Origin: Octopus vulgaris
Lineage: Eukaryota
Length of the DNA: 64,000 nt
Assembly: GCA_951406725.2 (NCBI GenBank)
Contig: OX597814.1
Location: forward strand, 222,890,001-222,954,000
Direction: 5' to 3'
Shown here piece by piece: positions 380 through 34,055 of the stretch. The notes under the pieces are model-generated. The model was not told where the DNA came from and ran no database searches. It saw only the letters and a program-made list of their open reading frames with translations. The first letter of the stretch is position 1. The number at the start of each line of letters is the position of its first letter. The translations under genes and the position numbers were made by a program.

Positions 380-3150
380 CTATTCTCACACAATACAAAT
401 GCGTAACATGTTCGTATGCATGTAAATAATATGAGTGATTCTGGGCATGTGACGACCAAGAGGGAATTAAAACAAGTAATTGATTGAAAAAATCTAGGAT
501 GTTTTAAATGTACAGATACATTTCTTTGTTTTATAATTTAGTATTTTCTTAAGTGCTTATTCCTATACTTCAGAGGATATCTCCGGAATATATAGCCCAT
601 TTCTTATTTTTAAGAATTTGAAGGAAATTCTGTTGGAATTTTAAAGAAATTCGGATGTTTGGTAATTGGAAATGGGACGTTGTCACCGAGATACATTACT
701 AAAAGTTATCATTGCATAGACGAAACTACCGAACTTGAGACAAAGAACAAAACCTATTCACTGAAGCTAACAGTTGTACCACTTGCAATAGAACACAATT
801 ATTATATACAAAATTTAAAGTTTAGGCAACAACATTGTCCGTAACTACGTTTCGAGCGACTAAAATTTCTAAGAGAATTTAACAGTTCTCGTGTTTTTGA
901 ATGGCTAACAGATGCCTTCCACACTGCAATCGTTTTAGTTTTTAACTCACTTTTCATTCAAAACATTTGCCAACGCAAGTAAATCTTCGATAAAAACAAA
1001 TGAAATTTTTGCGAAATTTCTTAAATTACTTATTTTCCAAGATATGTCTTGTTATTTTTAATGTTTTTATTTCTGTTATTCACAATATTTTTGAGACGAA
1101 AGAAAGAAAGAAAGAAGGAAATACTGATTCGAAACAATATTTGCAGTGTATGACTAAATGATTTGCTGTTCTTAAATACACTACTACGAAAAAAAAAAAC
1201 GTAATAAAAAAGGATATCTACGTCAGTGTTATGATTTATGCAAACTCAGCAAGTTGTAACATGTAACTCCTGTTAGAAGATTTTGAACGCAGGACTGTTC
1301 GTCAACTATATAACCTTATTGTTCTTTACTGCAGTAAAACATACCTATGTAAAGTAATTATATTCAGCAAGGCAGTGTAGGTCATTAATGAACAAGAAGT
1401 TTCTTGCGCATGGATGCAACGCAACGCTGGCCACAGATTATGAACTGCTGGCCTTTTCGCTGCTAGGCCGACACTCTGCGTTGGCATGTGTAGAAGCAAG
1501 CAGCTATATAGGCATTTTGTTTTTTTGTTTTTTGTACCACAGAACGTTTCCAATTTTGAATAGATTTATCATAAATGCCGAGTGAATAATAGTGATATGC
1601 TGTAAAAAAATAATTGATTTATCTTGGCTACAGGAGATACCAGTTTTTGTATGTATAGACAGCAGTAATAGTAGTAGTTTAATATTAGACATTGCTTCGT
1701 TGTTCATTCTAAATTCTCGGATTCTATGTGTGTATCCATACTAAAAACTGAACCTTCACACTACAACGTTTTGCTCTTTTTTTTTTCTTTTAACGACATG
1801 ATTTGCTTCGTACCGATGAAATTCTTGATACTTTGATATTATTTGGAGATCAGAGTCAGTAGAGCGCTGAATTAAATATCTTGGCTATGTCCTGTTATGG
1901 TTTTCAATTCAAATAAATACATTGCTTTACATTACTTAATTATGTTTCTCATTTGAAATCCTGCCATGATAGGCTTTGTTCCTTCAGAAGTCCATAACAT
2001 GATTTTTCTGTTACGATAACACAAATAGATGAACAACACAGGGGGTCAATGAACATTTATAAAATGTCTTTATGATAAGCCGTAACAATTAAAAAGATAG
2101 TTAATTAAAAGAATAATTCATTTAGCCCACAACAATTTCATGAATTTTACCTATACATATTTTGATAACAATTTTAATGAAACATGTCATTTGAACCAGG
2201 AAAAGTAGGGTGTAAAAATATGTGATATTAGTCATCTACCATACACAATAGCAGAAAATATATACTTAGAAATTATGTAGGTATGTATTGGGAATAACTT
2301 AAAGAAAGTGCAGTATTTATGATAAAGTACCAGTATGTATTCGAGTAATGAACTCCTGGATTTTTTCGAAGTCAACCTAAGTAATGGCAAACTTCACAGA
2401 AAGAAGATAGCCTGTATTAAAAATATATTTTAGGGACGTATTTGAAATTTGCTAATATAGTTGCAGTTGTACCAGATGCCAAATCAAAATTGCCCTGAAA
2501 CGCAACAGCTTCCGTTTTAACAACTTTGGATGATTTCGATAAGCTCACCAAGGACACACTAAACATGTTCTTCTATAGAGATGGTGAGAACATTCCTAGA
2601 TTGCGCTACGTAAATGCCTTCAGTGGGAGTTCTAAAACTAATAATGTGTGTGCGTCATGTATATATATATGTTCAAGGTGCATTCAGTTACATATTTCTA
2701 CAGTTCAAATAAGTATACCTTTGGTAATTTGCATTTTTACATCTTTGCTGAAATTTCCTGAAAAAATTGGAAATTCGACGCAGGTTTTTCAATAATATTG
2801 TATTTTGTTTTAATGTAATTATGAATCATATATCCTTATTTACAATCACTAAGTCTGGCATAGCCTTACATTTTTCATGCAATACCAAAGGTCAGATTTC
2901 TTTTGTACGCTAATATATAAAGTGAGATTTGAAGTTTTCTTAGATTAGAAAAACAATACCAAATAGGTATTCTTTGCATATCAATCATATATATCTCTTA
3001 AACATTTTGGAAGAAATCCTAACTTAATCCACTGAAATATCGATTACAAGTATTATGCTAAATCTGAAACGTAACGCTAATATATGCTTTATTACAACTC
3101 TCTATGAAGATGGCGAACTGGCGAAATCATAGAGCGTCGGAAGAAATACC

Positions 3151-3378
3151 TGTTTCTTTACTACCCACAAGGGGCTAAACACAGAGAGGACAAACAAGGA
3201 CAGACAAACGGATTAAGTCGATTATATCGACCCCAGTGCGTAACTGGTACTTAATTTATCGACCCCCAAAAGGATGAAAGGCAAAGTCGACCTCGGCGGA
3301 ATGTGAACTCAGAACGTAACAGCAGACGAAATACCGCAAAGCATTTCGCCTGACGTGTTAACGTTTCTGCCAGCTCGC
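3151..3378 (-). mobile_element. SINE group B, young copy nested in an older plus-strand group B copy (about 3108-3150 plus 3395-3560)
   Basis: Head GGCGAGCTGGCAGAAACGTTA, body GGTCGACTTTGCCTTTCATCCTTTTGGGGGTCGATAAA, tail GGGTAGTAAAGAAACA; 16-bp TSD CGTCGGAAGAAATACC at 3135-3150 and 3379-3394. Confidence 0.9.
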
Positions 3379-5168
3379 CGTCGGAAGAAATACCATTAAA
3401 CATTTCTTCCGGCACTTTACGTTCTGAGTTCAAATGCCCCCAAAGGCAACTTCGTGTTTCATCCTTCAAGGATTGATAAAATATATTACCAGTCAAACCC
3501 TGAGGTTGATGGTCCCGATTAATCAACATTCTCTCAAAATGTTTATAATCCATTACAATTCTATATTCAGATGTAAATTTCATCTTATAAAATTGAAATT
3601 TAAAAAACAATTTTATACAGCGATTAACTTAATCGATTGGGCGTCACCCGGAGAAAACTGGACTGGTGTTTGCAAAACGAAAAATAGATAATATACAGAC
3701 ACGTTAAAATGTGAATTATAGAGTTATATAGTCGAATGAAACATTTTAAAACTAAATTTATATAATTTTCAAACAATGTTTCCTCAAAATAGAATCCAAA
3801 CTAGCTGATTATATGCTAGCAGAATGTCATTGAATCTAGAAGGTCATATGTTAAATATTGCAAACTAAACTCAGTTGAATGTTTCTGCTTAGCATTGCAA
3901 ACAATCAAACAGAACAATACATTCCGATTTTCCGTTAACGATTAAGCACAAGCCATGATATGCAGATTAAGTGTATAATGTTCACATTGAAATATATAAC
4001 TGATGATGCCCAGGTATGTAAGATATAAGGATATCGTATTTTTTTCTTTTCCATTGTGTATGTGTGCGCGCCCATGCGTTGGTGTGGATATACGAATGCA
4101 ACAAACGCTAAATCTATGCAGTAAATGTCATTTCTTCGTTCGAATTTGGCATTTCACTGTATCACCAGTCAGAGCTTGTCGCTAAGGTGTAAAACTTCTT
4201 GACCTCACGACCTCACAAAAAGGTAAAAATTTAAATAATGACAGATTGAGTTATCCGCTATAAACGAATAGAAGATATGAATAATAAATATGATCGGTTC
4301 TTATACAAATTCATATTTAAGTTTCTAACTGTATTTTACTATTATAGTTGTACACTTCTTTGGAACCTACATGTTCGATCACAATGGATTATCAGTGAGC
4401 GCATTATTGCATTAAATTACAGGAATTTTATGTCCCATATATATACATATATACATGCATATGCGTATATGTATATGAGTGTGTATTGGCCATATTTTCG
4501 TTCAAAATGTACACATACAAATAAAAATAAACAAATCCTTTGTCAGTTTCCTTTGTGACCATTCCATTTGTTCAAATAAATGATTTAATTCCTCTGTGCT
4601 TTACCCTTATAACACAGAGGGTATCAAAGGTACGTGTAAGCTTATAGTAGACTCCAGTAAGAATCAACGTAAAAACAAGAACAAATCTGCTCCATTGAAT
4701 TATTCGCACAATTTATCCAACGGTATCCTGAATTTTTCATTCGGTTCAATTTCGCTTGCAAGTTTCGATCTGAGGCTATTGTACCGCAAGAAGCCATGCA
4801 GTTAGCTCCATCTCGTAACTTTATATTCATGGAAGCACTTCTTAACCAGTCGGCCATATATAAATATATCTGTACGTACATTTTCAATACGCATTTATGT
4901 TAGAAATTTGATTAAAAACGCAAAATGACCTATTGACATAAACATTAAGACACGTTCTCATGTGACATCTGGGAACCTTTAGAATATTTTCAATCATATA
5001 GACTAACTATCTTTGATAGAACCCATATGTAGATAATGTATTACATATGAATATATGTTATATAAATATAATATATTCATATTAGTATGAGTGGAAAGAA
5101 ACACACATGATGTACACAAATTTATAGAGACCCATAGTCACGGCGAGAGAGAGAGATGTATATACGAA

Positions 5169-5217
<49 letters not shown>

Positions 5218-6214
5218 AGAGAGAGATAAAGAGATGGAGTGTTAGTTGTATATGAGGGGGTATATGTGTGGTTAGTATATAAATGCATTTGCATTTGTTT
5301 ACACATACATATGTAGGCGTGTCTGTATAAATATACCAGTACACTGCGTTTCTATTCTCACATACAATGGAATTTTTACATTTATACACACGCGAGCACA
5401 CACACACATACACACATAAGTAAATACATATGTATTCGTATTTAAAACATGAATCCTGGGTACATTTTAATATCTACATACATATGTACAGTACACAGAA
5501 GTAACTGTAAGCGGATCCTTCTTCGGTTTCTCTAATATTTATCCCAGTGGTTCAATTAACGGAACTACATGCTCACTGAGTATTCCATTAACACTTGTTC
5601 CCCTAGCATAATCTTGAAATCGAAACAGTACGTGTTATGAGGCTAGTAATTTGATTTACGGAATATAATTCGTCGAATGGACATGCAGTTTCCGTTGTTT
5701 GCTAGTTTTAAATAAAAGGTTTGGATACACTTCAGAGATTTGAAGAAAGTATTGACCTACATTGTTGCGCATAAGAACCGAAAACTGGGTCTGATCGTTT
5801 TAGTTTGGAAAGTGGCTCTATACATATATGTATACACACACGCAAACACACAAACATACACACACACACATTCATAGTTGAAATTTGTACAAAAGATTGC
5901 ATACATGCGTCAAATTTTGTTATCAAAATTTCCATTGTTAGATAGTTATAAATAAAGTCTAAATCTAAATCTCAAATTGGGAAGAGAAAAGAAAAGTATA
6001 CATAATACATACATACATACACAACATTATATTACATTCATTACATTACATATTCAATATTCAATCATTAAACCAGCAGAGACTGTGCAAAAATTTCCTC
6101 TCTGTATTGGATTAATAAACACCCAGAATTGTTTAATGGCGACCTAAGCGATGGCAAATGTCGAAATAACAATCACACGATCTTCGAGACTTATTTTCTA
6201 TTATTACTTACTCT

Positions 6215-6582
6215 GTTAGTGCACCGGACGAAATCCTTAGTGGTATTTCGTCTGCCGCTACGTACTGAGTTCAAATTCCGCTAAGGTCGACTTTGCCTTT
6301 CATCCTTTCGGGGTCGATTAAATAAGTAGCAGTTATGCACTGGGGTCGATATAATCGACTTAATCCGTTTGTCCTTACTGTGTTTAACCCCTTGTGGGTA
6401 GTAAAGAAATAGGTATTTCGTCTGCCGCTACGTTCTGAGTTCAAACTCCGCTGAGGTCGACTTTGCCTTTCGTCCTTTCGGGATCGATAAATTAAATATC
6501 AGTGAAACATCAGGGTAGATGTAATCGACTAGTCCCCTCCCACAAAATTTCACGCTTTATGCCTTTAGTAGAAAGGATTATT
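6215..6582 (+). mobile_element. SINE group B head-to-tail dimer (young-tail copy joined to old-tail copy)
   Basis: Two GGTATTTCGTCTGCCGCTACG...GGTCGACTTTGCCTTT units; junction GTAGTAAAGAAATA|GGTATTTC at about 6411/6412. Confidence 0.9.
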
Positions 6583-6660
6583 ACTTACTTTGTATTGAAA
6601 TTTGTTAAAGAAACATTAAATACACACACGCACACACATTTGAAATAAGCTTTAGCTATG

Positions 6661-6855
6661 TTCTTTTAATCTTCTATTTGTCTCAGTCATTCGACTACGG
6701 TCATGCTGCAGCACCAACTTAAGGGGTTTGAGTCGAACAAATCGACCCCAGGACTTATTATTTGTAAGCCTAGTACTACGCTAAGTTACGGGGACATAAA
6801 CGCACCAACATTGATTGTCAAGCGATGGTGGGGGTACAAACACAGTCGCAAACAC

Positions 6856-6891
<36 letters not shown>

Positions 6892-7052
6892 CGGGCTTCT
6901 TTCAGTTTCCGTCTACCAAATCCACTCACAAGGCTTTGGTCGGCCCGAGGCTATAGTAGAAAAAGCTTGCCCAAAGTGCCACGCAGTGGAACTGAACCCG
7001 AGACCATGTGATTGGGAAGTAAGTTACTTACCACACAGCCACGCTTGCGCCT
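6661..7052 (-). mobile_element. tRNA-derived CORE-like SINE, group A (resembles the octopus OR-type SINEs)
   Basis: Minus head AGGCGCAAGCGTGGCTGTGTGGTAAG...GGTTCAGTTCCACTGCGTGGCACTTTGGGCAAG; internal (TA)n; highly similar to the copies at 9670, 54801 and 61078. Confidence 0.9.
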
Positions 7053-8509
7053 ATACTGAGATTAATTCAACAAATTCTCCCCTACAAGTCTTTTGGTTTG
7101 GTATTCTTTAACAAATTTCAATACAGAATTAGTACACAAGTGATAATGGAAGAATTCTATTTGAATTCTAATTGCTTGTCATGTCTGTTGCATTCTTATT
7201 ATAAGATTCTCCTTTGAATAAGCCACCCAAATAATATATATATATATACATAGGTGGGTGTTGAAGAGTGTGTACTTACAACAAATTCGTATCCATCATA
7301 CAGGAATGTATGTTTACAAGAGAATGTGTGCGCGCGCGCAGGCTCGATTAAGGTTGAAAAATAGTAATGGGAAATTCATGAAAGCTGAATGGGAAGTGAA
7401 AACCGGAAGTGTCTCGTCATTTATAGCCGATGTCAGGAGGTACTCTCACGTGTTAACTTTGACTAGTAAGTAATGAAAATATAATTAGGAGTTCAAATTT
7501 CAGTTGGGTTATGGTGTGTAGAAAAATCCTGTTAGTGGCTTCAGCAGATACAATAACGTAAACTAAAAGTGAACAAAATATAAGAATACAATCAGTAGGT
7601 AACTATTAAGCGCCTATAGATATGAGGGCAAGATGATTTGTCAGGGATGGTTGTTTCACAATTTAAGTTTCAAATTTCAGCTGATATTTCAATTTTCGCA
7701 TCTGCCAGGTTGGTCTTAACATATAATTAGCTTCGACTGCAATGTGCTAAAAGCATACACTGAGTGACTAAATTAGTGATAGGGAACTGTAGCGTCTACG
7801 TACATTTTTAAAGTTGACATTCATCAAAAGGGGCCGCTTCTGAAAAGGCAATCAATTAACTAAATGATAAAAACATCTGAACCAAATTTGGTCGGCAACT
7901 TATTAAGAGTACTCGGTTCGGCAAAGAAAGGACTTCTGTGCTTTTGCTTCAGTTTCTTTTTAATATTTGTCGGTTTTATTTATTTCTTAATTTTTTTTTA
8001 TGTGAGATGTTGATTTCTTTACACGCAGCTGGAATGTAACTAATAGAAAGTTCACAAGAAAAACATAATATTCACAAGATGCACACAGAAATATTCCTAA
8101 AGGAATTAAAATGACGCTGATCAATCGCAGATTGGCGAGTGGATAAACATACAAGCGCATGATATCCTATCTTATGCACTGTGTTTTATCCGATCCATTG
8201 CAAATCTCTTAACATATAATTAGCCCATCTCGACAATTTGCAATTAGATATTATAAGAATAGTATAGGAATAAGAATATCACGTAGAAGTCACTTATTCT
8301 CAAGCAATTTGTTGGCTCTAAACGGCAAGTTCAAATCTCATAGCGTAAATTCAGGTTATCATCCAGGATTTTCAAGGAAACTCTAAAGTGTTATGTATGT
8401 CGCTGTTTCATCTTTAAAATAGGAAATAATATTGCAGGTACAAGAAAATTTAACACAGGTGATCGACAGGTAAATTTGCACTCAAAATTCAAATAATTGC
8501 ACAAGATAT

Positions 8510-8839
8510 TTTTTAAAAGACTCCGCCGGTTACGACGACGAGGGTCCCAGCTGATACGATCAACGGAACAGCTTGCTCGTGAAATTAACATGCAAATGGC
8601 TGAGCATTCCACAGACACGTGTACCCTTAACGTAGTTCTCGGGGATAATCAGCGTGACACAGAGAGTGACAAGGCTGACCCTTTAAAATACAAGTACAAC
8701 TCATTTTTGCCAGCTGAGTGGACTGGAGCAACGTGAAATAAAGTGTCTTGCTCAAGGACACAACGCGTCGCCGGGAATCGAACTCACAACCTTACGATCA
8801 TGAGCCGAATGCCCTAACCACTAAGCCACGCGCCCTCAC
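8510..8839 (-). mobile_element. tRNA-derived SINE, group C (second tail type)
   Basis: Head GTGAGGGCGCGTGGCTTAGTGGTTAGGG...GAGTTCGATTCCC; core GTGTCCTTGAGCAAGACACTT; 12-bp TSD TGCACAAGATAT at 8498-8509 and 8840-8851. Confidence 0.9.
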
Positions 8840-8859
8840 TGCACAAGATATATTACAAA

Positions 8860-9233
8860 CTAGCAGTATCGCCCGGCGTTGCTCGGGTTTGTAAGGGAAA
8901 TATCTATAAAGCAATTTTTAGAGAGTTATAGCCAAAAAATGGGAAAAAAATTATGGTAAATTTTTTTTGAGAGCTAAAAAGGTCGAGTTGCATCCCCTAG
9001 ACAGTCTGTGGTTTGTGTTTCTGATTCTCGACCCCATGTCGAATTTATCGATTTTTTTCAGAACTGGGGGAACTTTTCAAAATTTTCACTGCGTTAGTTT
9101 TGAATTATGACATTGGGCTATGTGTGTGTCAAGTTTCATCAGAATCGGTTGAAAGCCGTGGTCAGGGTGAGGGTACAACCTAACAGATACACAGACACGC
9201 AGACAGACAAACTGCCGTTTATATAGAGAGAGA
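8860..9233 (-). mobile_element. Non-autonomous Helitron
   Basis: Minus strand starts TC, ends with hairpin CCCGAGCAACGCCGGG then CTAG; sits between host A and T with no TSD; near-identical to 14993-15376. Confidence 0.85.
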
Positions 9234-9669
9234 TAACACTACGTTCCAGAGTATTTGCTGAAAGATCGAGTGTAGATCGAGTCAACGATGAACTCACTAC
9301 GTAGTCGCTCGATATGCAAGAAGCAATCTCCTTTATACTGCGCCCTAGTAAATTTAAACGGGTTAAGGGAAGGTTACATTGGATATGTAACGTATACATT
9401 CTTAGATCAACTACTGTATAACATGACTAAAATAATTCCTAGGAAGTCAGTGACCCTAGTAATCAGACATGACCTAATACTAAACAATGTATAACTATAC
9501 ACTGTATGAGAAAGAGAAAATGACAACCAGTTCCAGTTGTCAGATCTAAATATCACATTCCTGTATAATGTATCTATGAGCTTATGCGTGTGTATATGTG
9601 CATGTATGTATATGTATGTATATACATTGTGTGCGCGCACAATGTATTGAAAACACAAATATTATTGGT

Positions 9670-10075
9670 TACTCTTTTACTTGTTTCAGTCATTTGACTG
9701 CGGCCATGCTGGAGCACCGCCTTTAATCGAGCAAATCGACCCCGGGACTTATTCTTTTGTAAGCCCAGTACTTATTCTATCGGTCTCTTTTGCCGAACCG
9801 CTAGGTAACGGGGACATAAACACACCAGCATCGGTTGTCAAGCAATGCTAGGAGGACAAACACAGACACACGAACACACACACGCATATATATATATATA
9901 TATATATATACGACGGGCTTCTTTTCAGTTTCCGTCTACCAAATCCACTCACAAGGCTTTGGTCGGCCCGAGGCTATAGTAGAAGACACTTGCCCAAAGT
10001 GCCACGCAGTGGGACTGAACCCGGAACCATGTGGTTGGTAAACAAGCTACTTACCACACAGCCACTCCTGCACCT
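9670..10075 (-). mobile_element. SINE group A, full length
   Basis: Near-identical to 61078-61492; tRNA-like head, CORE-like CTTTGGGCAAGTGTCTT, internal microsatellite, AAAAGAGT-type tail. Confidence 0.92.
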
Positions 10076-11384
10076 ATAAACGGTTACATCGTTTTTTGTA
10101 ATAAACTGGGTTTTTTTCTTTTTTGATGCGTTCTTTACAGTTGTCTTAATGTTTCTAGGTCATTGTTCTCTTTTAATCTAGACGAAGGGGTCTCTGTCTT
10201 TTGAGAGAAGATACTTGTTTCACTCAAAATGCAGCTATTGGTGCATTTAATCATTAATGGTGAAACTTTGGAGTATAGAATTAACTGATATTTTAATTCT
10301 TTCAAATTGTCCTGCTCGCTTACAATCAAAGTGCAATAAATAAGAATGTTCTTTAGTGGTTTAGGAATTTGACTGCCCTTTTTAGCATGCAAGAAACCAC
10401 ATAGTGGCATTCTCTCCGTGTATAAATGTTATATATAACACCGGGATTCCGTACAGTTTCCCGCGACGAAATTCATTCGCAAACCATTAGTCGGGCAGGG
10501 ACTATAATGAATGACACTTGCCAATATGCTATGCAGTTGGACTTAATACTGAAAAGAAATCTCTAATGAACTCAAGGACAAATGTGAAGAAAACTAATTA
10601 ATAACACCAATATCTTGAAGGCAGTCGTAGAGTATGTGTTTGTCGTGGTGGTATGCCTTTAAGTTTCAGGCATTATTTCACTCACCCTTCGTTATTACCA
10701 TTAATATATTGCATTCAATTTACTCCACTCTGTCCCTTGTAATGCTGCATTGATGCAAACCTCTCCTATCGTGATGTATGAATAATGAATTATTGAGGAT
10801 TCAATTGCTTTAATGGAATTGAAATCGTTCCTTTTACATATATAACTTAACATAAGTGGATGCAGAGAATAAAATGGTTCGGTTAATTTGAAATACCAAA
10901 GCTCTTAAGTGAAGTAATTAGCACATCTTACGGTTTTATGGGCGCGGCGTTCGAATCCCGCATGGAATCAAACGAGTTTTAAGTAAATGTTTGTGCATGT
11001 GTGTGTGTGTGTGTGTAGCACCATATTTTGATACACTGAAGTGAAATCTTTGTTTATATGTTGTCTGTATCTAACTCTGGCCATATGTTAAATTTGTTTC
11101 TTGATTTAGTCGGTAGCAGCTGTGATGTTGCTTCAGTGTGGTTCTTAGCACAACTAAACAGTACTAGCAGCATACAAATTCTGCAGGCGATATTACACGT
11201 ATTTTCCGTCTTCTGTTTTAGATGTTTTATTCAGCTGCTAAATTTCTTATTTCCTTTCAAAAAAAAAAAAACCTTCAGCAAACTTAACTCATATTCGTCG
11301 GAAATATTCATACGTTATTACAACTTCCCTTTTTACAAACTTCTATAATTTTCTGTTGAAACACCTATATAATCCTTTTTACTA

Positions 11385-11570
11385 TAGGCACAAATCCTTA
11401 AAGTTGGGGGAGTGCTATAATCGGTTACACGGACCCCAGTACCCTACGGGTACTTATCTTATCAACACCGCAGGATGAAAGACAAAGTCGACCTCGGCGG
11501 AATTTGAACTCAGAACATGAAGACGGAAGAAATGTCGCTAAGCATTTCTCCCGGTGTGCTCACCGCCTTA
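11385..11570 (-). mobile_element. SINE group B, diverged
   Basis: GGATGAAAGACAAAGTCGACCTCGGCGGAATTTGAACTCAGAAC matches the reverse complement of the group B body. Confidence 0.8.
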
Positions 11571-11689
11571 AACACATCTTTATAATCAACAAGCAAGAAT
11601 CAGTGCCGGCCAACCGTGCCAGAAATCCCCAAAATAACACCACAACATTTACAAAACGAGGAAAAATCGAATGAAGATCATATTAGAGA

Positions 11690-12350
11690 GTGTTGTCCGA
11701 GATATATATGAAGACGAGTTTGTCACGTCTGAAAAGTACTTCTACACTTACGCGAGAAGCACGTCTTCCCAGGTAAATGGGCAGAAAGACCACTTCTTCC
11801 GTCTTGAAGGGAGTAAAGGCATGATGTCTGGCCACAGCCTCGGACGCAAACCACACCACCTCCGTTGCGAACTCTTTCCCTCTTTCCAAATGGGCTGCAG
11901 AGCTCTTTCCACTTCAGTTCTCATAGTTAACTCTATCCGATGTACTCTTATATGTTCTGTACATCACAGTTCTTTTGGCCTTCTTTTCGGTAGTTTTCTT
12001 GGGATGGGATACCTTAACGTCGTTCCTCTCCTTTTTCATCATTTCTTGGAATTTTTCAATTCCTCCAGGCATACATCTTCAGACTTCCGTCTCACCGCCT
12101 CTGCGAAATTCTTCTTTTCCGCCTTATCTATTTTTATCGAGACATCCTATTAGCTTCTACTCAGACGACGACAGGTCTGAGTAGCTAATTCTTTTTATTT
12201 TACCACAATTCCTCTTTCAAACAAGGGGGCAGCTTTAACAAAACTGCCGTAAGGCAGCAAAATCAAGTGCCTTGAGAGACAAAAATTATCAACAAATAGA
12301 ACTCAATACACCTTGACTAACTTTTCGAACAACGTACAAACAAAAAAGAT
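11690..12350 (-). pseudogene. Degenerate 5' region/ORF1-like fragment of a non-LTR retrotransposon (possibly Tx1/L1)
   Basis: Broken minus-strand reading with a Lys/Glu-rich N-terminus containing KNFAEAVRRK (SYAxAV-like gag motif), followed by TVMYRTY...WFASEAVARHHAFTPFKTEEVVFLPIYLGRR; stops and frameshifts present. Assignment is inference. Confidence 0.4.
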
Positions 12351-13072
12351 GATCGTAACAACAATTTCTTTATTGCCCACAGGGGCCAAACACAAAGGGA
12401 CGGTAAAAATGAGGGAGGAGTCGATGGTACGTATGTTTTCTACACAGAGGTGAAAAGTAAAATATATATATATATATATGTAATTAAGCAATTAAGGACA
12501 ACTACTTAATAAGGAAAACTTAACAAGAAATTGTCAGGTAGATAGCGTGAAAACCTCATAAGAGAAAAATTTCGAAAATAATTATTTCTTATTGAACATA
12601 TTAATAAATTAATATGCCCTCTATATATATATATGTATATATATATTGGTCCAGGCCACGTCTAACTTAATAGCACCACCTGATAGGATTATTTGAATCC
12701 TGTTTTAGTCAAGTTTTGTTTATGTTCCATTCAAGTAGTGAGTTTTTGTTGGGTGATATGTATGTATGTATGTAATAGATTTAAATCAGTAATTTGGTCG
12801 TACTTATTCTGAAGACATTGGGAAGATGAAACCGTCCACCACGTGATTTGAACCCTACTGCTACTGTATCGGTTTGTAAATTCACCGTCTTTTTATTATA
12901 ATCGTTAAATCAAAGATGATACAATTAAAAAATAATATTCTATTTTATTGCATTCATCATTTTTCTTTCGTTCTGGACATTTTCTCTAAATTCAATAATT
13001 ACATGTGCGTATATGTGTGTGTAAGTAGGTATGTATATATATATATGTGTGTGTGTGTGTTTGTGTGTGCGT

Positions 13073-13109
<37 letters not shown>

Positions 13110-14190: not shown

Positions 14191-14254
14191 TAATTTAGTG
14201 AGAGTTAAATGCTAGAATTCGTAAGGTAAAATGGCAATATGACGCTGTATTTAC

Positions 14255-19982: not shown

Positions 19983-19983
<1 letters not shown>
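19862..19983. mobile_element. mariner-derived MITE
   Basis: TA|CGAGGGGTGTAATGAAAAGT ... ACTTTTCATACACCCCTCG|TA terminal inverted repeats with TA duplication. Confidence 0.85.
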
Positions 19984-20044
<61 letters not shown>

Positions 20045-21765: not shown

Positions 21766-22251
<486 letters not shown>

Positions 22252-22559
22252 TATATACTTTATTGGGTTTGTTCATGTTTCTGTGAAATATTTTACTGAA
22301 GAGAAGGCTCGAGAGGCCTTCCCCACGCTTGTTTTTCTTTTTTGCTAATTTGTTCAATATTTTTGACTTGTATTTTTTCATACACGCTTATTCTATTTTT
22401 GTTGGTGAAAAACAATTCTCAAATTTTAGTGAAGCGTTTTCACGACTCTATTGCAATCCTAGCGAAACACTTTCCAGTTTCGTAATTTTGCTAATGGCCT
22501 TCTGCAGAAGAATGAAAAAGAATACATTTTGCCAATCATCTGTGTCGTTTCTTTACAGA

Positions 22560-22670
22560 TGGCTCTGCCAGAAATCAGTTCTCATCTTGGAGAACTTCTT
22601 TAAACAATATAGTCGGCATGTGCTTGTAGAAATACTATGATTTCTTTCTTGTACAATTTACTTTCAAGCT
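22560..22670 (-). pseudogene. Possible decayed Penelope GIY-YIG C-terminal remnant
   Basis: Minus translation KIVQERNHSISTSTCRLYCLKK resembles the PLE C-terminal KI...Y...CxLCLxEK motif; very degenerate. Confidence 0.3.
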
Positions 22671-22894
22671 AATACTTTTTCACTCATTTTTAACTGCTTT
22701 AACATTCTAATACCAAATTCTTTTTAGCTGAGCTTTTGAACTTTCTTATCCTGCATGTTCCTTTCTACCTAAATCTTTTTCTTATCAATCTCAGGTTAAC
22801 TGAACAAGATTTGCTATCTTTATTTGCTATTACTGTTTTTACTACCATTTCAATTTCTGTTTTGGTCGAAATCAGTTTTATTTCTTGTCTCTCA

Positions 22895-23040
22895 TCTCTC
22901 TAGGATCTATAAAACAAGGCGTCAGTAATGTACTGGGATCGATTTCATTAACTGTACCAGATTTTATTGGCCTTGTGTCCAAATCCGTCACGATTTTTAT
23001 TATTATTGTTGTTGTTGTAGTAGTAGTAGTTGTTGTAGTT

Positions 23041-23092
<52 letters not shown>

Positions 23093-23975
23093 CTGTTGTT
23101 GTTGTTATTACTTGAAAAAAATGTTCCACAGCATTTCTTTCGAATGGCCCATTTGAGTTCAAGTACCTCCGAGGTGGACATTACCTTTCATGCTTTCGGG
23201 AACGATAAAATAACTATCAGTGAAGTAATAGACTGCCCCTTCAACTCAAAAACAGCTGGTTCTGCACCACAATTCGAAACCATTATTATTATTACTTGGC
23301 TAAAATGTTTCTCAGCATTTCTTTCTAATATCCATTTTGAGTTCAAATTTCGCCGAGGTCGAATTTACCTTTCACCCTCCGGGATCAATAAAGTAGGTAC
23401 CGGTGAAATACTGGAGTCGCTGTCATCGAATTTCCCTCCCCTCAAAAACCGCTGGCCTTGTGCAAAAATTTAAAACATAAGGTGGTTGGCTGGCAGAATT
23501 GTTAGCACATCGGGAAAAATACTTAGCGGCAATTTGTCTGCCACTACATTCTGAGTTCAAGTTCAGCCAAGGTCACCTTTGCTTTTTATCCTTTCGGGGT
23601 TAATTAAATAAGTACCACTGGAGTTGAGGTCATCCACTTCATCCCACCCCACAAGCTGCCCTTGTGACAAAAACTTGAAATAAGGTGGTGAGCTGGCAGA
23701 ATCGTTCGCACTACGGCGCTACGTTTTGATTTTAAATTCCGCCAAGGTCGACTTCGCCTTTCATCTTTTCGAGGTCGATTAGCAAAGTACCACCAGAAAA
23801 CTGGGGTCAATGAAATCGACTAGTCTCTTCCCCCAAAGTTCCAGCCTTGCGCCGTTAGAAGAAAGAACTATTATTATTACTAAGGCGTCGATCTGACAGA
23901 ATGGTAAGTATGGTGGAGAAAATAATCAGTGGCGTTTCTGCCAGATATTTGAATTTTAAGTTTAATTAACGCAAA
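22895..23975 (+). mobile_element. Cluster of about six co-oriented, diverged SINE group B copies
   Basis: Repeated TGAGTTCAAATT..GCC(G/A)AGGTCGAC..TGCCTTTCATCCTTTCGGGG bodies near 23150, 23340, 23550, 23730 and 23950, plus a tail at 22900-22995; separated by (TAT)n/(TAG)n. Confidence 0.8.
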
Positions 23976-24170
23976 GTCTAAAATAAGAATGTTTGTATGG
24001 TAGGAAGAGAAGAACATTCTAAAATTTCAAGTAGAATTTTTCTCAGAAATGAATGGAATTTTGTATTGGTGTAATGTAAGGCATTTTCTTTTCTGATGCG
24101 TGACAATTCTACCAAGCAATCGGCTTCAACAATTGCAAGAAAAATATGTGTGTCTGTGCGTGCACGCGTA

Positions 24171-24278
<108 letters not shown>

Positions 24279-24428
24279 TCTTGATTAGAACTGCACGACA
24301 AACGGGAACGTAAAACTCTGAGAAGCAGTATTTCGTGATGTTCTTGCAGCATATTACACTACTTCCGATATTCGAGTACTGTTTTTTCCACCTTATTTTG
24401 TATTTATGTGCTTACTCGTGTGTGTGTG

Positions 24429-24479
<51 letters not shown>

Positions 24480-25285
24480 CGTGCATGCATGTATAAAATC
24501 AAAATAAGTAACAGGATGTCAAGTAGTAGTGCAATATGACCGTTTCAAGCGGTTCCATTTAAAAGAACACTGCAAGCATTACATCAATTTAAATACAGCG
24601 CTATCTTCAGTTGCAATAAACATGGATTTTCAACAGACAAGACATATTAATATATTTTTCCCGAATATTTCGTCGGAGCTAGAGGATGAAGGAATTTCCT
24701 GCTGTCACTATTGCAGCATGAATAATCTAAGAGAAGAACTACAATTTTGGAGTGGCATGGAACACAGTGAGGGTATAGGATTATAATCCATTTCTAATAT
24801 TTTTTTATCTACCTTCTTATCATCAGCAAAATACCTAAGGCTAGAATACTACGTTTATTGAGAATAAAGACCACTGTGGGTTGACAGCTGCTCATAAATA
24901 GATATTACTAGATGTTTCACCTATTCCTTAATTTCTTACTATTTCTTAATTCCTTATAACCATAGATACTCTTCATCACAAAAAGAAACAAACTTTGATT
25001 TTTTACTGTCATAGCTACCCCTCGTCACAAAAAGATATAAACTTTAGGAGTCAACTGGATAGTAGTAAGAGCCCATAATAGAGGTACGTAGGGGTGACAT
25101 CAACTCTCGTCATTATTTTCAGTTAAAGGGACGTACGCTATGAAAGTTAGGACACCATACTGTGATCTAGTAAAGCATTAAGAGCTCAGAGGAAAAACTG
25201 TATAATCAAGGTATAGCAAAAGCCCGTGTAATATTATGTTGTATAACAATAAAAATAAGAGGGATATACAGCTCAGTTTAAACAT

Positions 25286-25347
<62 letters not shown>

Positions 25348-25614
25348 CGTGTATGTATGTATTTGTATGCATAGCAACAGATGGAGTTGCTTACTAAGGC
25401 AGAGAAGAGAATGAAGTGAAGTGTAAGGGAGAAGGGAAAGATGGAGAGAAAGAAATCAAAGTGCATTATATGAATTACAAAAAATATATGACAAAAGGCG
25501 CTAATGAAAAAAAAAAAAAGAGAGGAAAATATAGAAACACACCTGAAAATGAAAATATGAAAAATAAACCAATAAAAGCACAACAAAAAAAAAGTAAGAA
25601 TTGTTTAAAGAGAA

Positions 25615-25647
25615 TATTGATGATGATGATGATGATGATGGTAGTGG

Positions 25648-25682
<35 letters not shown>

Positions 25683-25872
25683 GTAGTGGTGATGATGCTG
25701 AAGAAAATTGCGATAAGGATGATGTTCATCATCCTGATCATAATTATGTAGTTGATATTAGTCGTATTTGGCGTGGTCGAAATGAAGTGAAAAACAACGC
25801 GATTGGATAAAGATATAACGGAAGAGGAAGGACGACAAAAAAACTACTACTGCTACAGCTGCTGCGGCTGCT

Positions 25873-25934
<62 letters not shown>

Positions 25935-26101
25935 ACTACTACTACTACTACCACTACTACTACTACTACCACCACTACTACTACTTCTGATAATAATAAT
26001 AATAATAATGATAATAATAATAGTAGTAGTAGCAGTAGTAGTAGTAGTAGCAGCAGCAAGTTATTGTTGTAGTAGTAGTAGTAGTAGCAGCAGCAAGTAA
26101 T

Positions 26102-26163
<62 letters not shown>

Positions 26164-26200
26164 TAGTAGTAGTAATAGTAGTAGTAATGCTACTACTAAG
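25615..26200. repeat. Compound trinucleotide array (GAT, CTA, CTG, TAA, TAG, CAG)
   Basis: Read directly; a similar compound array lies at 34056-34290. Confidence 0.9.
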
Positions 26201-27921
26201 ACCTGCATCATCAGAAAAAAACTCTTCACGAAATGAAAAAACATACGAAGAAAATGTTAGGAAATGAAGTAGAGTATAATCAACAACAACAACAAGATGA
26301 AGAATAAACGAAGCGAAAAAATAGAGTCATAGCATGGAATAGGAAGAATGAGAAGAAAAAGAAATCGACTCTCATCAGCACCACTCACATTATCTCCATC
26401 ATTGCTACCATTAACATCATAAGAAATATATAAAAAAAAAAAAAACACTTTCACCACAGCCATCACAACAATCACTTCGAACGACAACGGCAAGAAGAAC
26501 AACAATATATATCTAATTAACGTTCCCAGTGAAAGGAAATCCTAAGTTTTAGAGAGAAAAAAATCAGAAAGACTTAATTGTTATTACTACACTGCTGTTG
26601 TTTGTTCAAACCGTTTAAACGAATTTCGGTTTGTCTTTGCACTCAGGCTGTTGCTAACTACATTTATTATTGTTGTTGTTTTCGCTATTATTCATATTAT
26701 TTTTGCTTGTGTTCAGATCTTCCACCCCCGCTTTTTTTTTTGTAGTTGTTTGTAAAGTTGTAACCACCATTTTATTACTATTTTTGCTCCTTTTCGTGAA
26801 TTAATAATTATCGCTGTTATTATTCATGGTGCCTTCTTTACTCTCCGTTTGCGTGTGCCGCGGCTGTTTGTGTCATTACAAGGCTTCTATGATTCCCGTG
26901 TTGCTATGCTATTGTTGCCCTTTTGCTAGTGGAGCCATTATTGCTATGCTAAAAAGCAATTTAATTAACTACACCGAAACAGTTGACTAAATTCTTTGTT
27001 GTGTTTAGATTTGGCTATCTATGTTTTCTAATTATAATTCCATATCCAATCCGTCAGAATTGATAAAATACCAAACATATTATTTATTAAGTAAATCATG
27101 TCACACTTCGAGAACACTATTTACCTCTATAAAAAATAAATTCTGATTGCTGGTATATTATTGTTACTGCATCCCTGAAGAGATTTTATAAGACAGGATT
27201 ATATCAGATTTGTCACAGTGCTTCCTGAAGACCAAATTCATTCTCACTGCAAGTCACCAGTCAATTTTTAATCAATTTAAATTTTGTTGTTCTTTCTATT
27301 TTCTTTCTTGCAAGAAGTTTCATTAACGATAATGAATTTTCTTTTCATTACATGGTGGGTGGTAATTTAAATTAATTAAAATTCTTTTCGTCTCACTACA
27401 TTAAGTAAGCCCGCACTTGATTAAAATATTTTGTGAATTTGATGAAAACTTAGAACAGCACAGCACATACATGTTTCATAGTATTTGAATACAGCCTCTT
27501 ATGATATTAAGTTCAAGTTTTAATAGGATCAACTTTAACTAGAACTAATAATTTCTAAGATCGGTTAAATCAATTGATGCCTTCTTGTTACCAACTCTCT
27601 TCATGGACACAGAAAATACTTAATATTATAGTTGTTAACCTTTGTGGTTACGTTAATGTCACCCCTAAAATCCATACTTGGCGGTGTCGATTGATTAACA
27701 GACACCCAACCGAGAATTCGACAGTTGTTATCGTGTGTACAATATATTTAAAGCAGAACGACTTATACGATAATAAAAATAAATATATTAAGCTAGAATG
27801 GTTAATACCTATAGACCATGATGTGTAACTTAAAGTTTGTGAGCGTTAAGTTACGCAAAAGGATAGAAAATCTTTTTGTAAGCGTGAAGTTTAATAGAGA
27901 CGTTAAGTAGTTAACTGTACA

Positions 27922-28380
27922 TACAAGAGATGTTCATTAAATACTTCTCCTGGCCCACTTCTGGTTATTGCAGGAAACGGAGCTTGTAGAGATATAATTA
28001 TAAATGTTTCTATATGTCACCTTGTAAATTGCAGCTTCACACTAGTATTCGTTTGCCTTTTACGGCAGCTGAAGTGGACTAGGGTGTTGCAAAAGAGGCA
28101 GTTGGATGCAGATCAGTGATCAGGTTCTAATACTTGAAAGGTCGAAGTCAAGCATTGGCATCGCCAGTTCAAATGTGGTCAGACATCGGTGAAAACTACT
28201 CCTATTCTCGGATGATCACATTCTACCATAAAGACAACCACACCATCCATTAATTGGAAGCCGCCGTTTTGGAGGATCGTATAACTCTATCAATGAAACA
28301 TTCAGTGTTTCCAAAATGAAATATAATCCTGTTTACTTTACTTCATTTTATATGTATTATTTCATTATTAACTTTTGTTC
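27922..28380 (+). mobile_element. Decayed mariner (irritans/Himar-like) remnant
   Basis: TACAAGAGATGTTCATTAAATA left-TIR-like start; VGCRSVIRF*YLKGR near 28101-28145 resembles a mariner transposase N-terminus. Right end uncertain. Confidence 0.45.
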
Positions 28381-29168
28381 GAGTAAATTTTCATAATTTT
28401 CTGAGGATGTGAAATAAAATTTTCTGACTTACAAACCTCTTCTTACATGCATTAAGTAAAATGATAAAAGAATCAGGTTCAAGGTACGACTGTAGCTTAA
28501 ATTTGGAGGCAAAGGGATCATTATTTGTAATCTTATTATGGCTTTTAACGATATAATATTATAGGTACTTAATTAAGGATAATGTTGATGATGATCCATC
28601 TATGCTCATCTTACTTTTTTCTTGGATTAGCGCATAAACCACGAACACATCTAATGTATTTTTCCAATGCTATAGTGAATGTTTAAGGGAGATTTAGTTG
28701 CTCTTTCTAGCATTTACAGCAACTCCATAAGGGTTAATGATGTACAAATTCGAAGAGAAAACTTCTTAACGAAGATGAAGATCGCAAAGTATGTCATTGA
28801 ATAGCGGATATGCAATCATTAGAGGCTGACTTTTCAGTGTTGTGACTCTGCGGCACTTTTCTTTTATGTCTATTTACTTGTTATAGTTTATGTGTCTACG
28901 ATATGACAAAATCAATCGATTTGCAAAACTATTTTTTCTCAGATAGACAAAGAAAAAAAAAAAGAATTCCTTTATTGTTATGGGCATTCTCGGTGGCAGT
29001 GACGTCGTTTTATTCATTTTCGCTCATTAAAGATAATAAAGTAGAAAGAAGAAAAAAATGTTTTCGTTAAGTACAAAAGTTGTAAAAGAATAACATTACA
29101 ATATAAATAATGGCTACTTCTCTTTCTTTTTACACACACACACACAGACACACACACACAGACACACA

Positions 29169-29240
<72 letters not shown>

Positions 29241-31989
29241 AATATATATATATATATGTATATACATTTTTTTAAAATTCGTTTAATCATATTTTTCTTT
29301 GTGGAAGTCGCAAAAGAAAACAATTCGAAGCACGGTTTTCTCCTGAAGTCGATCGTAGTTCCATGGTAGTAGCGGTGTTGGTCGTGATGGCGTTTCTGAT
29401 AGTGTTGTTTGTTTTAACATCGCTCAATTATTTTATCTTTGAAAGCCGAGAGAACACACTGAAAAATCGTTTGCTATAGAGAACCTAACCACTTTAATTG
29501 GTTTCTTCTATTTATCTTCGTCTTCTTTGTTCTAAGTGTCCTTTTATCATCTTCCTATCCATTGTGGCCTACTCAGATAAATTTGACGTTTGTGATGCAA
29601 ATGGTTTCTATTATAGAAAATGATTTTTAGTTTACCTTTAACCCTTACGGAAATTCTGGAAATGCCGATAGCTGTTTCTAAGGATTTCGCTTCAGTGTAT
29701 GAGGTAGCAATTATTCGTGTATTCAATACAAATCTGGTATTGCGATTATATAATTATACAGCCTACTCAGAACTAGTGAGAGATCACAGTTTAAGTTTCG
29801 TCTACAGGTGGCGAAAGCTGGCTAGATTGTTAAAACAGAACACAAATTGTGACGAAATGTACTAAACAGACACCCATTAAATATTATCTGTTCCTGTTGT
29901 TTACTGTATTTCATCTAACCTTTCATACATATTTTTTTTTATCTTCTCTTTCATCTTCTTCATCTTCTTCTTCTCCGTTCTGTTCCTTTAATCCTTTTGC
30001 TTCATCCTGTTTGTTAGTTATCTTTTCCCTTCAGTTGTTTTCTTCATTCTGATGGTTCTTCTCTTATGTTTTCTTTATCACTTTTATTAATATCAATATT
30101 TTATTTTTATAGCACATATATGGCAATAAACCTCGGTAAATAGTATAAACAATAAACTTTCCGAAAATTTGATTCAGTTATTATATTATATGTTGTCTTC
30201 ATAGATTTCACAATCGTATGAGTATCACATCTTTCGATTATGCCACCCTCGTTTATCATCATTACTGACAACAAATCCTTTTAATGTTCAGTTAAATCAT
30301 TTAATATGATTTTATTTACAAATATAAATACTAAAGTATATTAAAGCAGAAATCTTCAATTGATTCAAATCAACGGTCGAAGAATACGCTTGTTTTATAT
30401 TAATTAACTTAGTTAAAGATGAATGTCTTAAAATTCCATACTGAACACTGAATGTAGAGTTGTGCAGTTGAGTGCAATTTTAGAAAGAAAGGAGATTCTA
30501 TATGCAACTTATTTCGTTTAATATCAATTAAACTGAAAATTAGAAATAAAATTCTGCTGTTTGTACAATCCTATTACATATTTTCTTCTCAATACATTCT
30601 TGGTACGCCTAAGAACTTGAGCATCACCCAGCTTCGTTAAATCATACATAAAGTAAGGGCAAATGGACGCTACTAAGAAAATATATTCTCCTTGATAAAT
30701 AAGGAAACCAAATTTAATTTTCGCTGAAAGATTTTCTCATTATGCTCTTTAATATCAGTGTAATCTCGTATCCCTTTTGATTAAAAATATTTGTAGGCAT
30801 GTCTGTGTCTTATTTGGAAGTTGACTTTGTAACTATCTGATTTCGGTTTCTATTAGAAAAACAAAACAGAATGGAAAAACCGAAATGCCTTCTACAACAA
30901 CTTCGACTTGACAAAAGCCCTGTGAACGAAATTTAATTGACAGAAAATCCGTGCAAGACTGCCGGATATGCATGCCATTTTCTTGGATGAAAGACCTAAT
31001 CCATTGCTTAGTTTGATACAGAACCTAGCACTGGTGCAGAATGAACGGAGTTCAGTCTCTCTTGCAGTGTTTAGGTTTGTTCTTTGATATCCATTTCACG
31101 AAAGTTCATAAAGGTAACCGTTTTTTTTTTTTTTTGTTAATTTTTCATTTGTTAATTCCGTTTCAGCGAAAGATCTGCTCGTTTCTGATATTCATACAAC
31201 CGAGCTGCCGCCCCGGCCGGTGCGATGCGCCGTCTAATACTAGAGGTTTGTGGAGAAACCAGTTAACGATACAAGATCAAAATTCAATTATTTTAAACTC
31301 AACGATGCACAGTCCTTCCTCTTATAAGATCTCTTATAAAAGTTCATGTTAAGATCTCTTATAAAAATTCATGTTATCTTCTTGGTATGTGGTTCATTTT
31401 AAGTCATGCGTAGATGTCGAGAATTTATATCTATCCTAAGTTCTAGAAATTTACATACAGATAACGGCATAAAACAATTAATTTCCTTAACAATTCCAGT
31501 ATCGAAGTATTTCTTATATCTACACATAATTTTAGTTTCATTTCAAGCTGCTGTTTCACTGGTCATCGAACTGCAAATCATTAAACCGTATCGCCAGAAT
31601 TCAATATGTAATTCTTCTGTCAATATTTGAGGTGATACGTTATAACATAATCTAGTTTATATAATTTTCCTTCAGACATGTACTTAAAGATAATCATTTT
31701 GTAATAGGATGTAAAAGGAAAATCTTTTTCATTGCGTGTCACCTAAATTATGCTGCTGCTGATACAGATATTATAGTTCACCACCACTGGCAATTTATAC
31801 GTGCGATTTATATTGTTGTAGGATGTAGTTTAGTAGCAGATCTCATAAGCGAACCCAAACCGCAATAGTGAGGCGCCATACAAGAAGAGCACGCGGTTGA
31901 TACATACACATACGCACATATACATACATACATACATACATACATACATACATACATACATACATACATACATACATACATACATACAT

Positions 31990-32282
31990 GTGTACAGTTG
32001 TGGAAATAGCTGCACAGCGAGTGTTAACATATAAAGATCAGCAAAAGAGAAAATACCTACGCTAAACTATTGAGGAATCTCTAGCTATTCTATCCAGATT
32101 ACAGATTTTACAGATTTATACCTGTAACCATTGGGACACTGAGATATGTAACACGATGCCTAAATACCAATCTTGAGAAACTAGGCTTCTGAAAACCAGA
32201 AAGGAAAAAACTGATTCGAAAACTATAGATTCTATCCATCCGTGGAACTGTAAAAATATCTAAAACTTAGCAGAGGTCTACA

Positions 32283-32285
<3 letters not shown>
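31990..32285 (+). pseudogene. 3' fragment of an R4/Dong-type non-LTR retrotransposon (restriction-like endonuclease C-terminus)
   Basis: Broken translation CTVVEISCTASVN...[51 protein letters not shown] matches the RLE-type E..K..Y / P..IG.LG pattern; flanked by (CATA)n and (TA)n. Confidence 0.7.
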
Positions 32286-32338
<53 letters not shown>

Positions 32339-32341
<3 letters not shown>

Positions 32342-32510
32342 GGGAGAGTTTACGAAAAAAACAAAAGACGAAGACAGGAGGTGTACAAAACAAACAGATG
32401 TATTAGTATAACGCTCAGGAATAGAAAAAGTCTTTTACGTTTCGAGCCTTCGCTATTCTACAGAAAGGGACACAGAAAAAACAAGGAGAGAAACAAGGTG
32501 AGAAAAAATA
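32339..32510 (-). mobile_element. PLE-type non-autonomous end with variant hammerhead-like motif; same family as 60860-61032 (+)
   Basis: Minus CUUU-CUGUAGA-auAGC gaag GCUc-GAAA-CGUA-AAAG; colinear with 60860-61032; flanked by (TA)n. Confidence 0.6.
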
Positions 32511-33134
32511 TATATGTAGATGAACATGTTTATACATGCAACTGTATGCATGAGACTACATACATAAAACAAAACGAACAAATCTGCACATATACATACA
32601 CACATATATGCATAAAACATACACACATATATGCATACATACATACATACATACATACACACACACACATACATACATACATGCATACATGCATACATAC
32701 ATACATACATACATACATACATACATACATACATAGTCTATCGCATCAGAGAAAGACGATTGTTGTGCAATTTCTTGCTGAACAACCAGCATATAATTAG
32801 CTCAGTGTCTCCATCAAATGAACATTAGCCGTACGGGTGCATGGTGCAGCATACACCAGATGTCGAAGTGATCGGAGAGTTGTTTTTCTCAGAACAGACG
32901 CACCACACGGCGGTGCAATATTCTAAATTAATTGATAGAAACTTTAATAGAAAGTTTAGTGTGACAGATTCTTTTCAAATTCAGTTTGATACTATTTACA
33001 CTTCAAATGTTAAAATGATCGGAAACCACTTGGCATCTCTGACTACAAAAATTTTCCACCAAATTTCCTTAGATTTAACAACTACCATCATAAAATAAAA
33101 CAACAAAACATTACATACAGCAGTATGCTTTATA

Positions 33135-33505
33135 TTTCTTTATTGCCTACAGGGGGCTAAACATAGAGGGGAAAAACAAGGACAGACAAACGAATAAAGC
33201 CGATTATATCGGCCCCAGTGCGTAACTGGTACTTATTTCATCGACCCCGAAAGGATGAAAGGCAACGTCGACCTCGGCGGAATTTGAACTCAGAACGTAA
33301 CGGCAGACGAAACACCTATTTCTTTACTACCCACAAGGGACTAAACACAGAGAGGACAAACAAGGACAGACAAACGGATTAAGTCGATTATATCTACCCC
33401 AGTGTGTAACTGGTACTTAATTTATCGACTCAGAACGTAGCGGCAGACGAAATAGGGCTACGCATTTCGACCGGCGTACTAACGTTTCTGCCAGCTCGCC
33501 GCCTT
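33135..33505 (-). mobile_element. SINE group B dimer with outer TSD
   Basis: 21-bp TSD CATACAGCAGTATG(C/T)TTTATA at 33114-33134 and 33506-33526; internal minus-strand junction GTAGTAAAGAAATA|GGTGTTTC at about 33316. Confidence 0.9.
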
Positions 33506-34055
33506 CATACAGCAGTATGTTTTATAGACTAAATCATATAACCAATTAAGAACACGCAATATGTTTTCTAGTCAAGGATGACTAGTGAATGAGCAAAGCT
33601 TTGTAATCTATGAAAGTCTGTTTCGATTTCTACTAGGTGAGATCTCATTTTTTTTCTACCAAGGCCACCAACATCTATGACAACTTGTACTGTGTGAGAA
33701 TGGATCTATATCATTGACTGTGAGCAGAATTAAATGCAGAAATTTTCCCTGTAACCCGTGGAAAGTGATTCGATTTTTTTTACAAATGTTGTATCATTTT
33801 CTCTTCACTTACGTCATGTAATATAACCTTTTACCCCACTCCTAATTACGTGCGGTGCTGAACGGAACAGAAAACTCCTTTTACAAAAATTATATTATAA
33901 ATAACATGAAAATACAGAAATACTCAAGTATCAGAATTTTAGGTCGAACAGGATCGGATCTAATTTCAGCGAGGAGTGATAACCCAAAGTAATGACAATA
34001 TTGAAACTCATCTTGTGACAACGATGTTATCCCGACGTCGTTGGACATCAAATTT

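Follow-up and report, generated by a model that had tools for sequence, protein, structure and literature searches.

The window, a 64,000-nt stretch of the Octopus vulgaris genome, contains copies of a SINE family that are joined to, or inserted into, other members of the same family. The copies were sorted by their tails into the subfamilies A, B, C, D, and E (labels of this analysis), and positions within the SINE, an element of approximately 230 nt, refer to an A-type consensus built in the analysis. The following features are relevant here:

3112..3510, plus strand: old degenerate host SINE, interrupted by the B copy at 3151..3379 (74% to that B copy over 3417-3510; 5' boundary set by eye)
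3135..3150: target-site duplication, left copy, 16 bp, identical to 3379-3394
3151..3379, minus strand: full-length group-B SINE, antisense inside the old SINE (sequence comparison, predicted fold)
3379..3394: target-site duplication, right copy, identical to 3135-3150
6214..6411, plus strand: head remnant and B unit, 0.05 from the B consensus
6412..6583, plus strand: remainder of an older subfamily-E host SINE, from SINE position 49, 0.11 from the E consensus
12363..12455, minus strand: 5'-truncated 3' end of a Tx1-like LINE with an A tail, not a SINE (relatives have ORF2 remains upstream and a Mariner transposase downstream)
33114..33134: duplication around the whole two-unit composite 33135-33503, copy 1 (20/21 match with 33506-33526)
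33135..33316, minus strand: A-type SINE remainder, from SINE position 49 (sequence comparison)
33317..33503, minus strand: head and B unit with an internal deletion of approximately 43 nt (sequence comparison)
33506..33526: duplication around the same composite, copy 2 (20/21 match with 33114-33134)

As had been noticed in a sequence-only reading of the window, the motif GGT(A/G)TTTC is located 2 nt past the end of the A-rich tail of all three B copies, at 3150 (minus strand), 6412 (plus strand), and 33316 (minus strand, with one transition). The 16-bp duplication described in that reading was recovered as an exact match (3135-3150 and 3379-3394), but a duplication at the junction itself is present at 3150 only, the joins at 6412 and 33316 being seamless. 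The two A-tailed ends used there as motif-free SINE controls (33135 and 12363) both lack the motif, although the one at 12363 is not a SINE. The B element at 3151..3379 has a predicted long 5' hairpin, with a z-score of -1.56 for the fold of the whole element.

The same kind of tail occurs at 46049-46091 of the window (minus strand, 81% over 43 nt), where it ends at a tetranucleotide microsatellite, and four old SINE copies are arranged head to tail at 23151-23821 (plus strand) with short AT-rich spacers between them. Contigs from four sequencing runs were compared with window positions 2600-4400, where paralogues dominate; two runs pass from the flank into the insertion. No joint skipping the insertion was present among the 15 of 626 joints listed for this paralogue-swamped interval in the four runs. 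In the most distant organism the depth over 2600-4400 is far lower at the tail and junction, which is a weak hint only.

The SINE is dispersed at high copy number, with 68,677 exact B tails in the 2.8-Gb genome. The divergence of the body at non-CpG positions is 0.052 for B (n = 30), 0.066 for A (n = 20), and 0.087 for C (n = 11), and for the older subfamilies 0.139 for E (n = 9) and 0.141 for D (n = 10). Motifs resembling the Pol III A and B boxes of a tRNA-derived head were seen by eye, and ARAGORN and Rfam each returned 0 matches. The 3' end of the SINE (positions 198-230) is 91% identical over 33 nt to the end of a LINE that shares its tail. The 8-nt motif corresponds to SINE positions 49-56, the first bases of the 3' arm of the long hairpin in the predicted fold, in which base 49 pairs with base 44 and thereby closes a 4-nt loop.

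In the genome-wide check of the sequence downstream of the tails that the earlier reading had proposed, the motif was found 2 nt past 25,366 of the 68,677 exact B tails (37%), and the comparison with the other subtype gave 630 of 18,982 exact A tails (3.3%). B tails are therefore at the site 11 times more often than A tails, and their association with the motif is not due to chance. A sample of 84 distinct B tails was taken from the first 2.8 Mb of the window's contig without regard to the flanks and with identical tandem units collapsed. SINE sequence is entered by 48 of these, 40 with the exact motif, and the remaining 36 are located outside SINEs, where 15 have 4-7 nt of the motif and 21 have fewer than 4 nt. 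Targeting of the SINE cargo is thus partial and, given those 21 of 84 tails, much looser than that of the LINE described below.

Of the 40 motif sites counted in 464 kb of unselected DNA, 17 are not part of a SINE. The exact B junctions, also 40 in number, are nevertheless all within SINEs (p ~3e-10). Because these off-SINE sites carry no exact B junctions, the 8-mer alone is insufficient for targeting. The antisense insertion at 3150 does not isolate the 8-mer either, since the antisense strand of its host (3112..3510) is also predicted to fold into a stem-loop (-13.5 kcal/mol) in which the motif starts the 3' arm as it does in the normal site. Such antisense cases are rare: among 31 pattern matches in the genome, 0 of 26 examined showed antisense use of the canonical antisense arm, and antisense insertion at the canonical 5' arm was rejected as a general route. 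Another fixed junction, at SINE position 16, is used mostly by A-tailed copies (L048, L071, L072, L154, L185, L307, L352). At five further loci (L005, L008, L011, L012, L077) B and A tails join another abundant repeat at a motif-like site, possibly a secondary hot spot.

The same base is used by a LINE with a shared tail. Among the 30 top loci of a search with one piece of ORF2 (blind to the flanks, query included), 25 end at SINE position 49, 2 are tailless, and 3 were scored as "other", one of which joins the position-49 site via a shortened tail. Of 20 further loci (from 46 of 48 rows, the two dropped being duplicate junctions; two junction-selected loci were left out), 12 were placed at the site by script and 3 by eye, 4 are tailless, and 1 is elsewhere. 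Full-length copies measure 5.3 kb and encode ORF1 and a 1134-aa ORF2. The ORF2 of L352 (1134 aa) matches PF03372 (Exo_endo_phos, APE), PF00078 (RVT_1), and PF13966 (zf-RVT), all above the cut-off, and ORF1, a separate frame of 451 aa, matches the zinc knuckle PF00098 with 23.1 bits (cut-off 20.8). An RTE partner or one with a restriction-like endonuclease was ruled out by the APE domain of the tail-sharing LINEs. By its architecture and sequence motifs the element may be called Tx1-like, and it appears to have the structural and targeting features of Tx1.

SINE positions 1-64 lie directly upstream of 15 of 16 full-length LINE copies, which indicates that the target site was duplicated. The idea that the LINE RNA carried this head was dropped, as the 15 heads, compared by eye, vary more than the LINE bodies (93-100% identity); the alignment of the older LINE group showed no SINE head immediately at its 5' end. 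Four A-tailed position-49 junctions proved not to be SINEs, and three of them retain ORF2 remains. No B-tailed LINE was found at the position-49 site in the small sample of 59 junctions examined and 60 ORF2-selected loci.

Sister LINE groups with similar tails have other fixed targets, namely Mariner, a TC microsatellite, and a further fixed site. One group (window 12363-12455, minus strand; L221-L225, L240-L242, L245, L248) is located just upstream of the start codon of the Mariner transposase, and another with a related tail (L252-L269) inserts into TC microsatellites. A very young sister LINE (L358-L369, 1132-aa ORF2) occurs in many identical copies at one fixed non-SINE site, where it forms head-to-tail stacks with other elements that share the tail. 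When 53 ORF2 pieces, all from this genome, were placed in a quick tree, they grouped by target (SH-aLRT 99 for the SINE site, 99 for TC, and 94 for Mariner); this grouping is partly built in, since the rows were chosen by similarity.

Within the LINE at the SINE site, the younger branch (93-100% identical to one copy) has C rather than G at SINE position 49 in 15 of 15 full-length cases, and copies of the older branch join at a G and occupy host SINEs of the types A to D. Among SINE heads, C49 was found in 14 of 38 B, 5 of 20 A, 0 of 9 C, and 1 of 33 D/E heads (D/E against the B rate, p ~3e-7). It is linked to G44 in 33 of 39 C49 heads, by which the loop-closing wobble becomes a Watson-Crick pair, and C49/G44 may be one inherited haplotype. 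A tentative and rather doubtful reading of this pattern is an arms race between the SINE and its own carrier, in which the SINE would have escaped by a change of the landing base with the hairpin kept (T44/G49 to G44/C49) and the younger LINE would then have been retargeted. An insertion at position 49 would, on this account, separate the promoter boxes of the SINE and kill the source copy. If true, an APE retrotransposon would have been reprogrammed naturally by a single base, through a change in the endonuclease, the RNA read-through tail, or both.

Duplications at the junctions begin 2 nt past the tail. Among 17 B insertions outside SINEs, between 7 and 13 already have the motif base in the target copy at each of the positions 1-7. 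Where the target side and the insert side disagree at +1 to +4, the match is on the insert side in 7 cases (3 clear by eye, the others in AT-rich repeats) and on the target side in 0, so the possibility raised earlier that the motif is simply part of the transcribed tail holds to some extent. The same comparison for A elements gave 3 on the insert side and 2 on the target side (n = 12). The imbalance of 7 to 0 suggests that the first bases of the motif are probably carried by the RNA tail, which would supply some of the junction bases.

Such bases could do more than fill the junction. If the endonuclease were only loosely specific, B read-through transcripts might themselves choose the site by pairing with nicked SINE DNA. 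The 7-to-0 imbalance agrees with RNA-guided choice, as do the A tails that mostly join SINE position 16, which is similar to their own tail repeat (6 cases), the identity of junction base and host base in 15 of 15 young LINE cases, and the unused 8-mer sites outside SINEs. The motif was already present, however, in the target of copies that retain both duplications, the distinct targets of the sister LINE groups track the protein tree, and endonuclease-determined targeting is the rule for Tx1 elements in the part of the literature drawn on here (PMC4494074). We consider it unlikely that RNA pairing alone selects the site.

Our preferred interpretation, which we regard as probable from the comparison of sequences, is that the LINE endonuclease nicks the site between SINE positions 48 and 49 and that both the LINE and the B SINE are inserted there by target-primed reverse transcription. 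The common site, the common tail, the LINE domains, the target duplications, and the polarity of the arrays are direct observations. The endonuclease of the Tx1-like LINE would thus likely cut for both elements, its recognition would extend beyond the 8-mer to a longer sequence or the edge of the hairpin, and base pairing of the nicked strand with read-through bases at the 3' end of the RNA would make the choice of site more precise. The claim of a sequence-specific endonuclease made from the window alone is upheld with respect to the shared site, the shared tail, and the APE LINE; it has to be qualified in that 36 of the 84 sampled B tails are not joined to a SINE, the 8-mer is insufficient, and the RNA tail probably adds bases. 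The safe-harbour role proposed along with it is conjectural. Against the LINE as carrier stands the observation that its tail resembles the A tail more than that of B, although B tails are 11 times commoner at the site, an excess that would require timing or RNA read-through.

The composites themselves were examined in 255 parsed elements, a mixture of unselected and junction-selected loci, in which the two-unit forms were BA (12), BC (11), BD (10), BB (5), and BE (3) and no reverse-order two-unit forms were found. The downstream hosts of B units belong to five subfamilies of differing ages, and the constant second unit of an Alu-like fixed dimer is absent. D last units diverge by 0.12-0.25 and the B unit preceding them mostly by 0.03-0.08. 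Flanking duplications (score of at least 9, found in 2% of shuffled pairs) were searched up to 12 nt past the last tail, so that those of read-through units ending beyond this would be missed. Of 26 B monomers, 20 had such a duplication, with a mean length of 17 bp, as compared with 4 of 14 B+D (p = 0.006) and 4 of 20 B+C composites (p = 0.0003), and with 2 of 18 D and 1 of 7 C monomers. Composites therefore behave as their own last unit does, as would be expected if that unit is the resident host. Two observations speak against a resident host: duplications were kept in 4 of 4 B+E composites (E monomers, 6 of 9), and some of those around B+D composites are perfect at 14-16 bp.

These duplications around whole composites, some of them perfect, would be expected if each composite had been mobilised in one piece, either from transcripts reading through a small number of nested source copies (3' transduction) or by template jumping between SINE RNAs. 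The heads, mostly B-type and single in 35 of the 36 unselected composites whose head is clear, would likewise suit transposition as a unit, and B+B and B+A arrays, both parts of which are young, may have arisen in this way. As a general origin it is nevertheless very unlikely in our judgement, given the five host subfamilies, old last units that are as diverged as old monomers, duplications lost at the rate of old monomers, four composites that keep the host head and the duplicated site, and the LINE at the same base. Still less probable is local tandem duplication of a 184-bp segment by slippage or unequal crossover. Many arrays have an exact 184-bp period, the units of some are near-identical, and one 241-bp array looks locally amplified, but neighbouring units differ in subfamily and age, and the breakpoint is fixed, the arrays are polar, and an antisense case exists. 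As a general cause tandem duplication was refuted, though it may secondarily extend some arrays. The earlier argument against a fixed dimer or tandem duplication thus stands, with independent site-specific insertion favoured by the five host subfamilies, the polar arrays, and the tail-sharing APE LINE at the same base. In the 241-bp array (L113-L119, C8, ~110.036 Mb), approximately seven full-head B copies each have a duplicated site, and it looks like local amplification following one nested insertion. A long palindromic, MITE-like insert was seen within the SINE at L080 (~1200-1480).

Under insertion at position 49 the seamless joins call for a further step. In 50 unselected B-first composites a single head (mostly B-type) was present in 35, no clear head in 14, and a retained host head with the duplicated site in 1; among junction-selected ones the corresponding numbers were 29, 23, and 3. 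The LINE does not resemble the SINE at its 5' end, and its insertions retain the host head. In 23 B+D/E composites the head was host-type at position 20 in 12 of 23, at position 37 in 7, and at position 62 in 2 of 21, a gradient towards B-type that fits a homologous merger of the two heads at points that vary. A 5' junction resolved at the duplicated site, which would leave a fully host-type head, was rejected on the basis of position 20 (12 of 23 against 31 of 33 old monomers, p = 0.0007). The excess of host-type bases at that position over B monomers (10 of 37) reaches p = 0.06 only and weakens the head-merging step. Because the incoming B head differs very little from that of the host, the two would merge by homology, either in the course of insertion or shortly thereafter, perhaps by deletion, so that one head remains and the extra unit of 184 bp joins seamlessly. 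Every new unit would rebuild the site, and arrays could thereby grow.

Taken together, self-nesting of the SINE family is real and on a large scale, targeting by the endonuclease is likely, and RNA pairing is a probable helper. If so, a large share of the SINE DNA of this genome would consist of self-nested arrays, which annotation pipelines would split into many families, and the passenger SINE would supply landing sites to its carrier LINE. With intact 1134-aa ORF2 copies and two LINE branches that differ by one target base, the respective shares of the endonuclease and of RNA-DNA pairing are testable, a question that bears on the retargeting of APE retrotransposons as insertion tools.

A LINE that targets its own partner SINE was not found in searches of open-access literature. 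The main text of a recent octopus repeat annotation does not contain the words "nested" or "target" (PMC13282606), nor do the accessible sections of a review of LINE/SINE pairs contain "octopus" (PMC3747384).

Several known systems share parts of the arrangement. Zepp and HeT-A/TART, which are LINE-type elements, form self-nesting arrays at few loci. New copies that insert into older ones, or are added onto them, give polar arrays there as in the octopus, where a non-autonomous SINE has approximately 25,000 dispersed junctions instead. The endonuclease of R2 is restriction-like, and its target is rRNA sequence. Being co-transcribed with its 28S target, it carries target-derived RNA sequence that strengthens specific integration, as outlined in the relevant section of PMC4494074. 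R2 thus resembles the octopus case in that target-derived RNA aids specific integration and homology can resolve junctions, and differs in that the heads upstream of the full-length octopus LINE look host-derived (by eye) rather than RNA-carried. Tx1L of Xenopus in Tx1D, Kibi/Koshi, and Keno are, in the same source, APE-type LINEs with a fixed repeat target, namely a DNA transposon, a microsatellite, and the U2 gene (PMC4494074); unlike in the octopus, none of these targets is a SINE that uses the LINE's tail. The LINE group in TC microsatellites (L252-L269) resembles Kibi as portrayed there.

The closest likeness is to the crocodilian Tx1-Mar LINEs and SINEU, which share a target inside an abundant repeat, Mariner-N4, with a preference of the passenger that varies by family (90%, 23%, and 13%), with tandem SINEU copies arising from sequential insertion with the duplication sandwiched between them, and with sister Tx1 groups in microsatellites, according to the sections of PMC4494074 on these elements. 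The Mariner-adjacent octopus LINE group (window 12363-12455) echoes Tx1-Mar. In both systems, as far as that account extends, a Tx1-type LINE and a passenger SINE share a target in an abundant repeat. The crocodilian target is a third element and that of the octopus the passenger family itself, the octopus heads are merged where SINEU copies sandwich the duplication, and in the octopus a younger LINE branch follows a variant of the site that differs by one base. By this comparison the octopus system appears to work like Tx1-Mar with SINEU, the difference being that its target is the passenger family.
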